Source: Bacillota bacterium (GTDB taxonomy: Bacteria > Bacillota > Dethiobacteria > DTU022). Taken from it: a DNA stretch of 64,000 nucleotides. The notes below the pieces were generated by a model that was given only the letters and a program-made list of their open reading frames with translations, searched no databases and was not told the origin of the DNA. Both the position numbers and the translations under genes were made by a program. Position 1 is the stretch's first letter. Each line of letters starts with the position of its first letter. Below, in pieces: positions 3,137 to 15,942 of the stretch. The stretch is taken from the NCBI GenBank assembly GCA_012797175.1, contig JAAZPQ010000194.1, positions 294 to 64,293 of the forward strand, in the 5' to 3' direction.

Positions 3137-4417
3137 GTGGAGCAGATGCGTATCTTAATGCTTACGTGGGAATACCCTCCCCGGGTGGTCGGCGGGATCG
3201 CCCATGTGGTCAGTGAACTTTCCCGCGCCCTGGCGGGCGAGGGAAATGAAGTTGAAGTGATCACCACCCTGGAAGAAAATTTACCGGAAGCAGAGAAAAT
3301 TGACGGGGTGACCGTCCACCGGGTGGCCCCTTACCACGGCCGTCCGCTAAACTTTTTCGCCTGGGTGCACCAGCTGAACCTGGCCATGCTGGAGAAGGGG
3401 GTCAGCCTCAGCCAGCGGCGCCGTTTTGACTTGGTACACGCGCATGATTGGCTGGTGGCTTATGCCGGCCGGGGGATTAAGCATATTTTTCAGATGCCCT
3501 TGATCGCCTCGATTCATGCGACTGAATTCGGGCGCAACCACGGCCTGCATAATGATGAGCAGCGCTATATCGGTGAGGTGGAGTGGTCCCTGACCTATGA
3601 GGCCTGGCGGGTGATCTGCAACAGCCGCTATATGCGTGAAGAGATTGAAAGCGTTTTCAATCTGCCCCCGGATAAGATATCGATTATTCCCAACGGGATC
3701 CGCCCGGCGGCATTCCAGGTTTCCAGCCCCGATCCGGCGGTGCGGCAGAGGTTTGCCGCGTCTCAGGAGAAGATTCTTTTTTTTATCGGAAGGCTGGTGC
3801 GGGAGAAAGGGGTCCAGGTGCTGCTCGAGGCGCTCCCGATAATCAAAGAGCGGATTCCAAATGTGCGTGTGGTCATCGCCGGCCGGGGACCTTATGCCGA
3901 GGAGCTGCACCGCATTAGTTTACATCTAGGCCTCGATCAGCAGGTCACTTTTGCCGGCTATATCGATGAGGAGACGCGCAACCAGCTTTATGCCCATGCC
4001 GATGTTGCCGTCTTCCCCAGCCTTTACGAACCGTTCGGCCTGGTGGCGCTTGAGGCGATGGCCACGGGGACCCCAGTGGTGGTGAGCGATACCGGAGGCT
4101 TTGCTGAAACGGTGGTCCATGGGGTCAACGGGATCCGGGTCGCCCCGGGAAACGCTTCCGAGCTTGCCGGGCAGGTCTGTACCTTGCTGGGCGATCCCGA
4201 GCTGGCCCGCCGCCTAGCCGGCCGCGCCCTGCAGGATGTTGAAGAGAAATTCTCCTGGCCCTCGATCGCCCGTCGGTACGAAGCGATCTACCAGCAGATT
4301 GTTTTTTCACCGGAGGCCAGGCGCTGGCGCCGTGAAGCCGACCGGCTGGAACCTTCATTCTCAGGCCGGGAACCGGCCTCTTCTACCGTGGGGCCTCCCC
4401 CCTCCCGTTATACCTGA
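3137..4417 (+). CDS. Glycosyltransferase family 4 (group 1); candidate alpha-glucan (glycogen) synthase
   Basis: The N-terminus MRILMLTWEYPPRVVGGIAHVV and the C-terminal EPFGLVALEAMATGTPVV (E-x7-E region) are GT4 hallmarks. It lies directly upstream of the NDP-sugar pyrophosphorylase fusion. Confidence 0.75.
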   Translation: MEQMRILMLTWEYPPRVVGGIAHVVSELSRALAGEGNEVEVITTLEENLPEAEKIDGVTVHRVAPYHGRPLNFFAWVHQLNLAMLEKGVSLSQRRRFDLVHAHDWLVAYAGRGIKHIFQMPLIASIHATEFGRNHGLHNDEQRYIGEVEWSLTYEAWRVICNSRYMREEIESVFNLPPDKISIIPNGIRPAAFQVSSPDPAVRQRFAASQEKILFFIGRLVREKGVQVLLEALPIIKERIPNVRVVIAGRGPYAEELHRISLHLGLDQQVTFAGYIDEETRNQLYAHADVAVFPSLYEPFGLVALEAMATGTPVVVSDTGGFAETVVHGVNGIRVAPGNASELAGQVCTLLGDPELARRLAGRALQDVEEKFSWPSIARRYEAIYQQIVFSPEARRWRREADRLEPSFSGREPASSTVGPPPSRYT

Positions 4418-4511
4418 GCTGGTCAGTGCATTATGTTACCGGATGGAGGGATACTAAAAAAACCCGGTAGCAGCCGGATAGACTTTTTATCTTTTACGGG
4501 GGTGAAGATCT

Positions 4512-14194: not shown

Positions 14195-14223
14195 CAAGCC
14201 CTGGCAAATAGAGGGGTGAGATT

Positions 14224-15942
14224 ATGAGCGAACAGCTGCTTTATGTAGCTTTTGTCTGGAACCAGCATCAGCCTTTTTACAGGGATGCGGTTTCTGGGGA
14301 GCTAATCATGCCCTGGGTGCGGCTCCATGCGTGCAAAGATTACTATCAGATGGCGGCGATCCTGGAGAGCTACCCGAAGGTGCGCCAGACCTTTAACCTG
14401 ACTCCGTCCCTGCTGGAGCAGTTTGAATGTTACCTGGCCGGGGAAGAAGATTATTATCAAAAAGTAAACAAGCCGGCGGAGAAACTTAACGATTCGGAGA
14501 AGCAGTATCTGCTGCATCACTATTTTGATATTCATTGGGATAAGGTCATCCGGCAGTATCCTCGCTACCAGGAACTGCTCGAGCTCCAGGGATGGAGCAG
14601 GGAACCCGAGGCGGTCCGTGCGGTCATGGAGCGCTATCGTCCGCAGGATTACCGTGATCTGCAGGTCTGGTTCAACCTGGCCTGGATAGACCCTCAAATT
14701 CGGCAATCCGATCCTCTCTTAAGCGGACTTGTTGAAAAGGGACGTAATTTTACCGAAGCAGAGCGCCGCTCGGTTATGAAGCGACAGCGTGATCTGGTAG
14801 GCGGAGTTGTCCCCCTGCACCGGCGCCTGCAGGAACGGGGTCAGATTGAGATCATGACCACCCCTTATTATCACCCGATTATCCCGTTGTTGATTGACAG
14901 CTGCAGTGCCCTACGGGCCTCTCCCGGGCTACCGCTGCCGCGCCGCTTTCAATACCCGCAGGATGCTTGCGAACAGCTGGCCATGGCCAGGGCCCAGTAC
15001 CAAAGGCTTTTTGGCAAACTTCCGCAAGGAATCTGGCCTTCGGAGATGGCCGTCAGCCCGGAAACAGTAGCTCTCTTTGCGACCTATGGCTTTGACTGGT
15101 CGATCAGCGACGAGCAGATCCTGGCCCGCTCGTTGAATGCCGAGATTATCCGCGATGGTTATGGCCACGTTTTAAACGGCGATCTGCTCTACCAGCCTTA
15201 CCGTGTCCGTGGAGCCGGGGGGGAGATTGCCATGGTCTTTCGGGATCACCATCTCTCCAACCGGATCGGGTTCGAATACCAGCATTTTCGTCCCGAAGAT
15301 GCGGCCGCCGATCTGGTGCACCGCCTGCAAAAAATTCGGGAGAACCTTTCCTGGTCCCCAGGCAATCACCTGGTAACCCTTTCTTTGGACGGGGAGAACG
15401 CCTGGGAATGGTACCAGGGAGACAAGGGCCCCTTTTTACACAGCCTTTACCGTCGCTTAAGCGAAGAGCCGCTTCTGAGATGCTGCACGGTCAGCGATTA
15501 CCTGGCGGCCAACCCGCCGCAGAGGATTATCGACAACCTGTTTACCGGATCATGGGTTGATCACAACCTGACCCGCTGGATCGGCACGGAAAATAAGAAC
15601 CTGCTCTGGGATTACCTGCTCGAGGCCCGTGAAGCGGTGGAGCACTATCGCCAGAGTAATTCCTGTCAGCCGGAGAGGTTAAAGGAGGCCCTGCACTATA
15701 TCTACATCGCCGAAGGCAGTGATTTTCCCTGGTGGATTGACAGTATGCCCTACTACCTGGCCGCTCCTTTTGAGGCTCTCTTTCGTCGACATCTTGTTGC
15801 CGTCTACCGCTCCTTGAAGAGAGCTGTCCCGGACCACCTTCGCCATCCCTTGATCCATCCTCAACCCGGAGAGAGTGCTTTTTACAATGATCCCCTTGCT
15901 GGACCGATCTCCATGGTTCCGTCCAATTCTGACCCGGAATAA
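14224..15942 (+). CDS. Glycoside hydrolase family 57 protein (AmyC-like, 572 aa)
   Basis: LYVAFVWNQHQPFYRD GH57 motif; tight spacing after the preceding GH57 gene. Confidence 0.65.
   Translation: MSEQLLYVAFVWNQHQPFYRDAVSGELIMPWVRLHACKDYYQMAAILESYPKVRQTFNLTPSLLEQFECYLAGEEDYYQKVNKPAEKLNDSEKQYLLHHYFDIHWDKVIRQYPRYQELLELQGWSREPEAVRAVMERYRPQDYRDLQVWFNLAWIDPQIRQSDPLLSGLVEKGRNFTEAERRSVMKRQRDLVGGVVPLHRRLQERGQIEIMTTPYYHPIIPLLIDSCSALRASPGLPLPRRFQYPQDACEQLAMARAQYQRLFGKLPQGIWPSEMAVSPETVALFATYGFDWSISDEQILARSLNAEIIRDGYGHVLNGDLLYQPYRVRGAGGEIAMVFRDHHLSNRIGFEYQHFRPEDAAADLVHRLQKIRENLSWSPGNHLVTLSLDGENAWEWYQGDKGPFLHSLYRRLSEEPLLRCCTVSDYLAANPPQRIIDNLFTGSWVDHNLTRWIGTENKNLLWDYLLEAREAVEHYRQSNSCQPERLKEALHYIYIAEGSDFPWWIDSMPYYLAAPFEALFRRHLVAVYRSLKRAVPDHLRHPLIHPQPGESAFYNDPLAGPISMVPSNSDPE

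Follow-up and report, generated by a model that had tools for sequence, protein, structure and literature searches.

Can a glycogen-type alpha-glucan be made and turned over by enzymes drawn entirely from "alternative" families? The question is raised by a locus in the metagenome-assembled genome (MAG) of an uncultured member of the Dethiobacteria, a Firmicute, from which a stretch of 64,000 nucleotides (the window) was analysed. Eight ORFs had been delineated there in a preliminary description made from the letters alone; their coordinates were right, and Pfam and NCBIfam profiles agreed with the families proposed, bearing out an alpha-glucan locus built from non-canonical enzymes. This alpha-glucan (glycogen-type) cluster is cytoplasmic and conserved in relatives, and signal peptides, looked for in the cluster enzymes, were not found. 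We favour the reading that the locus serves cytoplasmic synthesis and turnover of a glycogen-like alpha-glucan using alternative families only, and consider it probable; the activities and specificities assigned below are predictions from sequence.

Conservation and limits of the gene cluster

The conserved module comprises seven genes, flanked by comEC and holA. Its gene order is shared with Dethiobacter alkaliphilus and with loci L172, L170 and L007, the relatives including a Syntrophomonadaceae MAG and metagenome contigs. In Desulfotomaculum copahuensis, the core of GT4, fusion, branching enzyme and DUF4912 genes is kept in another genomic context and adjoins CBM53 and GH15 genes. Because gene order recurs in independent genomes, the clustering is not due to chance. 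The conservation that had been proposed as a check was thus seen and, since the families are of the alpha-glucan type, the locus is neither a group of unrelated sugar-nucleotide or exopolysaccharide genes nor a neighbourhood confined to one genome. When 80 metagenome loci were scanned around the fusion gene, the commonest neighbour clusters were the GT4 orthologue and the GH57 branching enzyme (seven loci each), the others being unrelated housekeeping-type genes at six loci or fewer. In both the fusion family and the GalT-like family, members that adjoin glucan genes are a minority.

The membrane-anchored CapA/PGA_cap-like protein (7033..8277, minus strand; PGA_cap, 220 bits), which has an N-terminal transmembrane helix in its sequence, had been counted as part of the cluster and has to be removed from it. 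The gene is missing from all relatives compared (L007, L088, L089, L170 and L172) and is frameshifted in strain L004 through a duplication of ~65 nt; it is an insert restricted to the window lineage, in a variable slot outside the conserved cluster. A terminator-like hairpin (15951..15969, plus strand) lies 9 nt past the last gene and hints at the end of the operon, although the terminator hairpin scan overall showed no enrichment over shuffled sequences.

Candidate synthesis genes and the remains of a GT5-like gene

The first gene of the cluster (3146..4417, plus strand, in an ORF that opens with GTG at 3137) encodes a GT4-type retaining GT-B glycosyltransferase of 423 aa with Glyco_transf_4 and Glycos_transf_1 domains. 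The sequence contains the EX7E motif (EPFGLVALE) and matches Glyco_transf_5, the starch-synthase N domain in Pfam, with 68.8 bits. Its top NCBIfam match is glgA_Coryne (185.7 bits, cutoff 302.4 not reached), and it scores under every curated NCBIfam cutoff. Matches in the PDB are ambiguous, spanning SPS, MshA, GlgM and the P. abyssi GS at E values of 1e-28 to 1e-32, and several homologues are labelled 'glycogen(starch) synthase' by JGI. At no fewer than 14 loci, an orthologue lies immediately 5' of the fusion gene. The GT4 protein is a candidate alpha-1,4-glucan synthase.

The adjacent gene (4512..6998, plus strand) encodes an 828-aa fusion with NTP_transferase, LbH and PGM_PMM_I/II domains. 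The N half finds its top PDB match in 8X7S, deposited as 'UTP--glucose-1-phosphate uridylyltransferase' (E 1.3e-70), and looks like an active sugar-1-phosphate nucleotidylyltransferase of the UDP-glucose pyrophosphorylase-like kind, joined to an LbH domain. The C half can be aligned over its full length with the archaeal PGM/PMM entries 9DU5 and 1WQA; compared with these, however, the Ser of TASHNP is replaced by Phe and DGDADR by TSGGEK, with loss of the Mg loop. The same degeneracy was repeated in all four homologues checked, with an 11-residue segment invariant. Judged by these residues, the C half is a catalytically dead pseudo-mutase with a phosphohexomutase fold. The proposed NDP-sugar pyrophosphorylase/PMM-like fusion therefore stands as regards its domains and its N half, but with the catalytic Ser and Mg loop missing from its PMM half, the fusion cannot be assumed to be a source of glucose-1-phosphate.

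We searched for classical glycogen genes in the cluster, its flanks and 20 of the ~37 ORFs of at least 200 aa downstream of 16 kb, including all those of at least 350 aa. Neither glgC, GT5 glgA, GH13 glgB nor GT35 glgP was among these scanned window ORFs, in line with the preliminary description, and the same ORFs yielded no mutase and no GT35 phosphorylase. The absence of GT5 has a history, however. The seemingly "intergenic" spacer at 10627-11118 holds relics of a GT5-like gene (10844..11065, plus strand), i.e., an N-terminal fragment at 10844-10924 and a C-terminal fragment at 10982-11065, and an intact GT5-like gene occupies the equivalent position in L007 and L170. By tblastn, residues 58-84 of the L007 protein match window positions 10844-10924 (37%), and residues 458-476 match 11009-11065 with 68% identity; in the latter match the sequences are ERAAARYRLLYRGMAPMKVPFISYTEPY in the window and AAERYREVYRGMATLKLPFVSYDEPY, followed by the stop, in L007. 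DNA across that stop codon is 76% identical to the window over 74 nt. From these relics, the missing GT5 is a secondary loss: a GT5-like synthase ancestrally lay between the DUF4912 and GalT-like genes and, by this sequence evidence, has since been deleted in the window lineage. The reported lack of GT5 thus holds in that there is no intact gene, but it reflects a recent deletion from a cluster in which relatives carry such a gene.

These observations bear on whether the locus is merely accessory, with canonical GlgC/GlgA (and perhaps GlgB/GlgP) encoded elsewhere making the bulk glycogen, the GH57 and GalT-like enzymes only remodelling and recycling it, and the GT4 and fusion proteins making another glycoconjugate. 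The GT5-like synthase inside the cluster of L007 and L170 is in keeping with such a role, as are the mainly unrelated contexts of the fusion family and the GT4 scores below all curated cutoffs; moreover, in other phyla the module of GH57 amylopullulanase, GH57 4-alpha-glucanotransferase and GalT-like genes accompanies GT5 glgA, and once a GlgC-like gene. Nonetheless, the GT4 and fusion genes are tied to the GH57 branching enzyme-DUF4912 pair in at least nine independent loci, one of them adjoining genes for a CBM53 starch-binding protein and GH15, and the GT5-like gene has been lost or has decayed three times (in the window, L172 and D. alkaliphilus) with GT4 retained each time. We therefore regard an accessory locus as rather unlikely. 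The conserved adjacency of GT4 to the fusion, and its retention in lineages whose GT5-like synthase has disappeared or decayed, are our grounds for proposing GT4 as the polymerase; its role may differ in L007 and L170, which hold a GT5-like synthase as well as GT4.

GH57 enzymes and the DUF4912 protein

The GH57 branching-enzyme-type protein (8442..10073, minus strand; GH57 and BE_C in Pfam) has T. maritima 2B5D as its top PDB match (E 1.9e-153). Its catalytic residues are intact: WLPECAY, with the nucleophile Glu, and PYDTELFGHWW, with the acid/base Asp, are both kept. Aligned with the P. horikoshii GBE, it has gaps at the beta5-beta6 region and the flexible loop, features that place the sequence in the loop-less class of the Thermotoga maritima 'AmyC'/GBE, with which it shares the catalytic Glu/Asp and the absence of the loop and strands. 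Unlike that class, the clade of the window enzyme always has a DUF4912 gene preceding it. In the window this gene (10108..10626, minus strand; 172 aa) precedes the branching enzyme gene in the same operon, and it lies immediately upstream of it in eight of eight close relatives. The protein is predicted to form an FN3/Ig-like beta-sandwich with a helical C-terminal tail; no study of DUF4912 as a partner of a GH57 GBE was found in the searchable literature.

Two further GH57 enzymes are encoded on the plus strand, and in both the family assignment and the catalytic residues are clear. The first is a 4-alpha-glucanotransferase (disproportionating enzyme; GH57, AmyA-A_glucT_m and AmyA-gluTrfs_C) at 12128..14194, in an ORF spanning 11924-14194; translation probably starts at ATG 12128, giving 688 aa and a 74 nt overlap with the GalT-like gene. 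Its top PDB match is the Thermococcus litoralis 4-alpha-glucanotransferase 1K1W (E 5e-120), and the HNHQP, WLAERVWE and DDGEKFG motifs are present. The second, of 572 aa (14224..15942; GH57, 222 bits), is of the amylopullulanase type, its top PDB match being the Aquifex aeolicus AaApu (8ZYI and related entries, E ~1e-71), whose catalytic dyad E256/D352 (PMC12106739) aligns with WPSE and LDGEN. A signal peptide was looked for and not found, and the protein is likely to be a cytoplasmic debranching or trimming enzyme.

The properties of the loop-less class raise the possibility that, instead of glycogen, the cluster makes a specialised alpha-glucan or oligosaccharide of small size, by analogy with mycobacterial Rv3032/Rv3031, which supply methylglucose lipopolysaccharide with its alpha-1,4 backbone. 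The pairing of a GT4 with a loop-less GH57 is exactly that arrangement (PMC4555173, PMC9041414). Loop-less enzymes, including that of M. tuberculosis, are poor or inactive on amylose; their branching on this substrate in vitro is low or none, their in vivo role has been called unknown, and the study describing them is doubtful that they take part in glycogen synthesis (PMC9291813). Neither in nor beside the cluster, however, are there methyltransferase, acyltransferase or glucosylglycerate genes, the full disproportionating and debranching pair is typical of storage-glucan turnover, and CBM53 and GH15 genes are neighbours in D. copahuensis. A specialised product is accordingly distinctly unlikely.

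Catabolism of imported starch or maltodextrin by the GH57 enzymes, with the GT4 and nucleotidyltransferase genes as unrelated neighbours, is very improbable. GH57 amylopullulanases and 4-alpha-glucanotransferases do serve starch utilisation in Thermococcales (PMC11046441). The cluster enzymes, however, have no signal peptides, the cluster neither contains nor adjoins a gene for an ABC/MalEFG transporter or a regulator, catabolism has no use for a branching enzyme, and synteny with the glycosyltransferase and nucleotidyltransferase is conserved.

The GalT-like enzyme and the proposed pathway

The remaining gene (11119..12201, plus strand, in an ORF spanning 10936-12201; DUF4921, GalP_UDP_transf and GalP_UDP_tr_C) encodes a GalT-like nucleotidyltransferase/phosphorylase of the HIT superfamily. 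Translation probably starts at TTG 11119, giving 360 aa and matching the calls in L002 and L003, and the ORF is intact in six strains. The suggestion that this is a relative of NDP-glucose phosphorylases gains from its top PDB match, the Arabidopsis ADP-glucose phosphorylase At5g18200 (1Z84; 215 bits, E 1.5e-62), compared with 147 bits against the P. aerophilum GalT and 81 bits against that of E. coli. H165, H167 and Q169 (HxHxQ) are invariant, as are the Zn ligands C46, H114 and H165, and the fourth Zn ligand, C49, is conserved in at least 90%. At5g18200 (1Z84/2H39) is thus the closest characterised relative, with HxHxQ and Zn ligands kept, whereas the nucleotidyltransferase of the window cluster looks UDP-glucose-type and not ADP-glucose-type. 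The family is also linked to glycogen synthase genes: a GT5 glgA lies within 4 kb of the GalT-like gene in 21 of 80 loci, from different species of many phyla, for which we estimate a chance expectation of well under one locus, and an alpha-glucan gene of some kind is near it in 25 of the 80. The bacterial DUF4921/DUF4931 family is biochemically uncharacterised (bioRxiv 10.64898/2026.09.13.751320).

In the synthesis and turnover pathway that we propose, the N half of the fusion would convert glucose-1-phosphate to an NDP-glucose, by homology most likely UDP-glucose. Since the mutase domain appears dead, the glucose-1-phosphate would have to come from a mutase encoded elsewhere; speculatively, the C half may be a sugar-phosphate-binding or regulatory module. 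GT4 would polymerise alpha-1,4 chains, to which the loop-less GH57 enzyme would add alpha-1,6 branches together with DUF4912, whose strict synteny suggests an obligate partner, and the 4-alpha-glucanotransferase and the amylopullulanase-type enzyme would remodel and debranch the polymer. The GalT-like enzyme, to judge from its closest characterised relative and the family-wide linkage to glgA, may interconvert NDP-glucose and Pi with NDP and glucose-1-phosphate, either draining the nucleotide-sugar pool or forming nucleotide sugar without release of PPi.

This scheme has the logic of the classical GlgC-GlgA-GlgB-GlgP/GlgX operon, i.e., glucose-1-P activation, polymerisation, branching, debranching and recycling, whereas a GlgC-type AGPase, a GT5 with KTGGL, GH13 and GT35 were not found among the window ORFs scanned, GT5 being represented by the relic only. 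The combination of branching, disproportionation and alpha-1,6/alpha-1,4 hydrolysis is shared with the GH57 toolkit of Thermococcales (1K1W, GH57 GBE and GH57 amylopullulanase) and with AaApu. In the archaeal (Thermococcales) systems the synthase is of the GT5 type and the phosphorylase a GT35; in the window the synthase candidate is a GT4 and no phosphorylase gene was found among the ORFs scanned. As in mycobacterial Rv3032/Rv3031, with the GT4s compared by family, the genes for a GT4 and a loop-less GH57 branching-type enzyme are linked, independently of GT5 GlgA and GH13 GlgB (PMC4555173, PMC9041414, PMC9291813). Unlike the mycobacterial pair, the window cluster is without methyl- and acyltransferase genes and adds the CugP-like nucleotidyltransferase/pseudo-mutase fusion, DUF4912, the GalT-like HIT enzyme and the GH57 4-alpha-glucanotransferase and amylopullulanase. 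The preliminary description saw in this gene set an uncharacterised pathway. What is uncharacterised is the variant, a cluster composed entirely of alternative families (GT4, GH57 and HIT); the kind of pathway is already known, as Rv3032 (a GT4 alpha-1,4-glucosyltransferase) and Rv3031 (GH57 branching-type) constitute a recognised 'non-classical' alpha-glucan route (PMC9041414, PMC4555173).

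Gene content and conservation of the cluster

All eight ORFs listed in the preliminary description were recovered between positions 3137 and 15942, and Pfam and NCBIfam agreed with the family labels assigned to them. The forward strand carries a GT4 glycosyltransferase gene (3137-4417; start refined to 3146, 423 aa) and an 828-aa NTP_transferase/LbH/PGM_PMM fusion (4512-6998), followed on the reverse strand by a PGA_cap (CapA) gene (7033-8277), a GH57 gene of the branching-enzyme type with a BE_C domain (BE; 8442-10073) and a DUF4912 gene (10108-10626). Beyond these, on the forward strand, lie a GalT-like gene matching DUF4921 and both the N and C GalP_UDP_transf domains (10936-12201; start refined to TTG at 11119, 360 aa), a GH57 gene with AmyA middle and C domains (4aGT; 11924-14194, start refined to ATG at 12128, 688 aa) and a third GH57 gene (Apu-type; 14224-15942). 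Refined starts were taken from gene calls on identical contigs, and place the GalT-like and 4aGT genes in a 74-nt overlap (12128-12201). Encoded within this overlap are the last 28 aa of the GalT-like protein (KGRADYEQSWRKDLLYP..AQS), a C-terminal tail conserved in its closest relatives; a similar overlap was seen in L007, a Syntrophomonadaceae MAG. The GalT-like gene is left uncalled in some strains because of its TTG start; a pseudogene was rejected as the explanation, the ORF being intact in six of six strains.

The cluster is flanked by comEC (536-3037) and by trkA, trkH and holA (16047-20071). Together with trkA/trkH, the glucan genes are inserted into the comEC-holA interval, as they also are in the metagenome contigs L170 and L172 and in Dethiobacter alkaliphilus. 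The surroundings (536-3037 and 18989-23283) follow the comEC ... holA ... gpr (germination protease) order that is classic for Firmicutes. Further along the window, selA and selB, encoding selenocysteine incorporation machinery, adjoin at 56923-60352, and three long ORFs of 520, 474 and 772 aa (29182-30744, reverse; 43718-45142 and 46525-48843, forward) had no Pfam match at E <= 1e-8; the last of these comes after a metallophosphoesterase gene, with which it may form an SbcCD-like pair. An identical BE protein was found on contigs from many metagenomes and in three NCBI MAGs; over the cluster, these contigs match the window at 99.75-99.93% identity. A partial GT4 with 100% identity carries the database label "Dethiobacteria bacterium", which places the window in an uncultured member of class Dethiobacteria (Bacillota). 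A promoter and terminator scan was uninformative, returning four promoter-like sites, against 8.5 expected in shuffled sequence, and a single plausible terminator, located after the last cluster gene. No signal peptide was found on any cluster enzyme, so all are predicted to act in the cytoplasm. A secreted starch-degrading system was rejected on this ground and because no transporter gene was found in the cluster or next to it.

Far from being conserved in no relative, the gene order recurs. L172 has the exact window order, GalT-like gene included, and ends at holA; L170 has it with a 477-aa GT5-like gene in place of the GalT-like gene, and L007 has both a GT5-like and a GalT-like gene. D. 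alkaliphilus AHT1 runs comEC, GT4, fusion, a 152-aa ORF, BE and DUF4912 (both reverse), a 393-aa ORF, 4aGT and Apu-type GH57. In Desulfotomaculum copahuensis, a CBM53 gene, GT4 and fusion are followed, after further genes, by BE and DUF4912 (both reverse) and a GH15 gene, at a location elsewhere in the genome. When 80 metagenome loci were scanned around the fusion, the GT4 orthologue and the GH57 BE were the top neighbour clusters (seven loci each), with the GT4 orthologue directly upstream of the fusion in six of its seven; every other neighbour cluster occurred at six loci or fewer, and contexts were otherwise unrelated housekeeping genes. Linkage of GT4 to a GH57 BE of the loop-less class described below is conserved in at least nine loci. 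We found no description of the window's conserved gene set in the searchable literature.

CapA, which had been counted among the cluster genes, does not share this conservation: it was found in none of D. alkaliphilus, L172, L170, L007 and D. copahuensis. Its slot holds instead ECF sigma/FAA hydrolase (L007), the 152-aa ORF (D. alkaliphilus) or a TnpB (Cas12f1-like_TNB) element inserted at L170:12538-13848. In L004 (ERZ2647829), a strain of the window species, a duplication of ~65 nt at the equivalent of window 7585-7639 splits CapA into ORFs of 259 and 174 aa, which suggests that the gene is dispensable. Given its absence from the relatives, the variable slot and the frameshifted strain, CapA was taken to be an insert and rejected as a pathway member.

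The GH57 enzymes and DUF4912

The BE protein comprises a GH57 catalytic domain (PF03065, 128 bits) followed by a DUF1957-type BE_C domain (PF09210, 133 bits), and scores 360 bits against NF041133, under the equivalog cutoff of 1000. Among solved structures, Thermotoga maritima AmyC/GBE comes closest (2B5D, E 1.9e-153), and the motifs WLPECAY (nucleophile Glu, CSR III) and PYDTELFGHWW (acid/base Asp, CSR IV) align with 2B5D and 5WU7. High branching activity requires a flexible loop of 17-22 aa, often Tyr-tipped, together with strands beta5-beta6 (PMC9291813). Aligned with the Pyrococcus horikoshii GBE, BE has deletions right after PECAY and in the flexible-loop region, whereas its alignment with the loop-less T. 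maritima GBE has no gaps at all. Because the beta5-beta6 insert is absent and the loop shortened relative to P. horikoshii, BE is by alignment a member of the "no loop, no beta5-beta6" class. This class makes up 92% of GH57 GBE sequences, includes M. tuberculosis Rv3031 and branches amylose weakly or not at all; according to the authors, the substrate it acts on in vivo "remains to be established" (PMC9291813).

In mycobacteria, a GT4 and a loop-less GH57 constitute a recognized "non-classical" route (PMC4555173, PMC9041414). The window cluster resembles this Rv3032/Rv3031 route in that a GT4 is genetically linked to a loop-less branching-type enzyme, and could by that likeness produce a specialized small glucan. 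However, the methyl- and acyltransferase genes for MGLP tailoring that go with the mycobacterial route are absent from both cluster and flanks, and we regard a product of this kind as improbable.

Directly upstream of BE, on the same strand, DUF4912 was present in all eight loci with a BE sharing at least 49% identity with that of the window, and in none of the seven with more distant BEs. From this we infer that DUF4912 is a partner of BE; in the searchable literature, this strict pairing is not described. The protein had no sequence match in the PDB. An AlphaFold model built with 40 homologues (mean pLDDT 79, ~90 for residues 20-130) consists of a beta-sandwich followed by two helices, and a fold search retrieved only generic FN3/Ig-like sandwiches, a fold too generic to provide a functional lead.

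The two remaining GH57 proteins likewise retain their catalytic residues. The 4aGT protein (12128-14194) matches PF03065, PF09094 and PF09095, shares its three-domain architecture with the Thermococcus litoralis 4-alpha-glucanotransferase 1K1W (E 5e-120) and carries intact CSR motifs (HNHQP, WLAERVWE, DDGEKFG). The Apu-type protein matches the Aquifex aeolicus amylopullulanase AaApu (8ZYI/9JLQ) over the full catalytic domain (E ~1e-71). The catalytic dyad of the latter is Glu256/Asp352 (PMC12106739), and by our residue count both members are kept, E256 of WPPE in WPSE and D352 of LDGEN in LDGEN. For all three GH57 proteins, family membership and intact catalytic residues are thus shown at the level of sequence. 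An assignment of the cluster to maltodextrin catabolism was also weighed, and we consider it very improbable.

The nucleotidyltransferase fusion, GT4 and a lost GT5-like synthase

The N-terminal half of the fusion has an NTP_transferase plus LbH architecture (PF00483, 193 bits), with an 11-residue GxGxRLxPLT-type signature that is invariant in five homologues. Its best solved relative is 8X7S, deposited as a UTP--glucose-1-phosphate uridylyltransferase (E 1.3e-70), followed by GDP-mannose pyrophosphorylases (157-175 bits). As a lead, we take the sequence of 8X7S to resemble CugP, the cyanobacterial non-GalU UGPase.

Over its whole length, the C-terminal half aligns with the archaeal PGM/PMM proteins 9DU5 (E 5e-43) and 1WQA (3e-40), and scores 181 bits against TIGR03990, under its cutoff of 439. 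The "PMM-like" label given to this half is therefore apt for the four-domain mutase fold, but not for its chemistry: in the (T/G)ASHNP loop, the catalytic Ser of TASHNP is replaced by Phe (ISLFSE), and the Mg2+ loop DxDxDR has changed from DGDADR to TSGGEK. Both loops are equally degenerate in four homologues (L007, D. alkaliphilus, D. copahuensis and a Chloroflexi MAG). Judged by these loops, the C half is a pseudo-enzyme with a dead mutase domain; a bifunctional mutase and pyrophosphorylase was rejected, and the fusion cannot be assumed to supply glucose-1-phosphate. To our knowledge, no such pseudo-mutase fusion has been described.

GT4 combines a GT4 N domain, which also gives a significant starch-synthase N-domain match, with a Glycos_transf_1 C domain containing EX7E. 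Its function could not be read from sequence, because the top NCBIfam model, the GlgM-type glgA_Coryne (TIGR02149), matched below cutoff (185.7 bits against 302.4) and SPS, MshA, GlgM and the P. abyssi GS were equally near in the PDB (all ~E 1e-30). The protein carries RVVGGI in place of the GT5 K-x-G-G-L motif and reached 122 bits against TIGR02095 (cutoff 328); several homologues are named "glycogen(starch) synthase" by JGI. A GlgM/GlgE route was rejected, given the sub-cutoff GlgM match and the absence of GlgE/GH13 among the window ORFs scanned.

Pfam searches of the cluster, its flanks and 20 larger ORFs downstream of 16 kb, which included all those of at least 350 aa, detected no GlgC, GT5 GlgA, GH13 GlgB, GT35 GlgP or GlgE. 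The cluster differs in this from the classical GlgC-GlgA-GlgB-GlgP operon, none of whose four families occurs among the window ORFs scanned. It could alternatively be an accessory locus beside a canonical glycogen pathway encoded elsewhere, which we consider unlikely. The preliminary description's claim that glgC, GT5 glgA, GH13 glgB and glgP are missing thus held for these ORFs, but needs amending at 10844-11065, where GT5-like relics survive.

These relics lie in the 492 nt that separate DUF4912 from the GalT-like gene. The translation of 10982-11065, ERAAARYRLLYRGMAPMKVPFISYTEPY, matches the final residues of the L007 GT5-like protein, AAERYREVYRGMATLKLPFVSYDEPY, up to its stop, across which the two DNAs are 76% identical; positions 10844-10924 match residues 58-84 of the same protein. 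Since an intact gene, whose product reads RVGGL rather than KTGGL, occupies this position in L007 and L170, the GT5-like synthase was deleted in the window lineage. In D. alkaliphilus AHT1, the 393-aa ORF in the GalT-like/GT5-like slot (L088:16760-17941) has no Pfam match and lacks the N-terminal motif; with 23% identity to the GT5-like protein (E 1e-19), it is a decayed homologue. In L172 the GT5-like gene is absent. GT4, by contrast, was kept in every compared locus. Its retention where the GT5-like gene is deleted, decayed or absent supports, and does not prove, the sufficiency of GT4 as the chain-forming enzyme. Separately, 42 nt of the divergent promoter region (10775-10816) are 76% identical to the sequence upstream of the L007 GT5-like gene and may be a conserved regulatory site.

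The GalT-like enzyme and a candidate glycogen pathway

The GalT-like protein was nearest to Arabidopsis At5g18200 (1Z84; E 1.5e-62, 215 bits), which has been named an ADP-glucose phosphorylase (bioRxiv 10.64898/2026.09.13.751320). Bona fide GalTs scored lower (147 bits for P. aerophilum, 81 bits for E. coli), and both curated GalT equivalog cutoffs were missed (92.7 against 102.1 and 117 against 448). Among 16 homologues from many phyla, H165, H167 and Q169 of the HxHxQ motif (HPHSQ) were invariant, as were C46, H114 and H165 of the zinc site, with C49 present in at least 90%. Membership of the HIT enzyme family and an intact set of catalytic residues are evident from these alignments.

In a GalT-anchored survey of 80 species, with tblastn-based counts and tblastn/ORF-based gene calling, a GT5 glgA lay within 4 kb in 21 of the 80 and any alpha-glucan gene in 25; by our estimate, a single-copy gene would lie next to the anchor by chance in well under one locus. 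The linked loci include Nitrospirota, Nitrospinota, Myxococcota, Zixibacteria, Ignavibacteria, Dormiibacterota and Moorella, and several have the operon GH57-Apu / GH57-4aGT / GalT-like / glgA, with a GlgC-like gene added in one Nitrospirae locus. The searchable literature does not describe an association of this family with glgA. In Acidobacteriota (L021, L047, L063, L075 and other surveyed loci), the neighbours of the GalT-like gene are class-III aminotransferase, cysteinyl-tRNA synthetase and YraN-like genes, with no glucan genes among them. Such housekeeping-type flanks suggest that the role of the family may differ between phyla. A Nitrospirae glycogen cluster (L080) with GlgC-like, GH57 Apu, GH57 4aGT, GalT-like and GH57 BE genes also encodes, between GalT-like and BE, a 506-aa protein (L080:10927-12447) with only a weak class-II aldolase match.

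From these similarities we infer, as the most likely mechanism, a pathway in which glucose-1-phosphate, formed by a mutase encoded elsewhere, would be converted to an NDP-glucose, probably UDP-glucose, by the nucleotidyltransferase half of the fusion. GT4 would build alpha-1,4 chains, the loop-less BE would introduce alpha-1,6 branches together with DUF4912, and 4aGT and the Apu-type enzyme would carry out remodelling and debranching. The GalT-like enzyme would equilibrate NDP-glucose and Pi with NDP and glucose-1-phosphate.

A more far-reaching reading, which we put forward as a whole only tentatively and think doubtful, takes the cluster to be a glycogen system that is based on UDP-glucose and sufficient in itself. 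On that reading it would reveal the physiological role of the ~92% of GH57 BEs that are loop-less: these would work only with the FN3-like DUF4912, on chains under synthesis by GT4, which would explain their poor in vitro activity on amylose. In the same scheme, the pseudo-mutase domain would sense hexose phosphates allosterically and take the place of GlgC-type regulation. The GalT-like enzyme would use Pi rather than PPi to form or drain NDP-glucose, and glucose-1-phosphate and polymer would thereby be linked by a phosphorylase-like, energy-neutral shuttle in an organism lacking GT35.

GH57 toolkits are present in Thermococcales. We rate the cluster as a variant within known kinds of system, revealing no new kind. 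A review has speculated that GT4 genes found in the midst of GH57 genes may encode unrecognized glycogen synthases (PMC11046441); the cluster offers a conserved gene set on which this can be tested, and makes directly testable the in vivo role of the loop-deficient GH57 "GBEs", the large majority of the family (a question raised in PMC9291813). Part of the gene set is carried by the culturable D. alkaliphilus and D. copahuensis. To these questions it adds three testable elements: DUF4912 as a putative obligate BE partner, a nucleotidyltransferase with a dead mutase domain, and a glgA-linked family of GalT-like putative NDP-glucose phosphorylases in many phyla. Should the parts not work as inferred, the cluster would be an ordinary collection of families that are each known already; if they do, many anaerobic Firmicutes would store glycogen unnoticed by pipelines that rely only on glgC, glgA, glgB and glgP.
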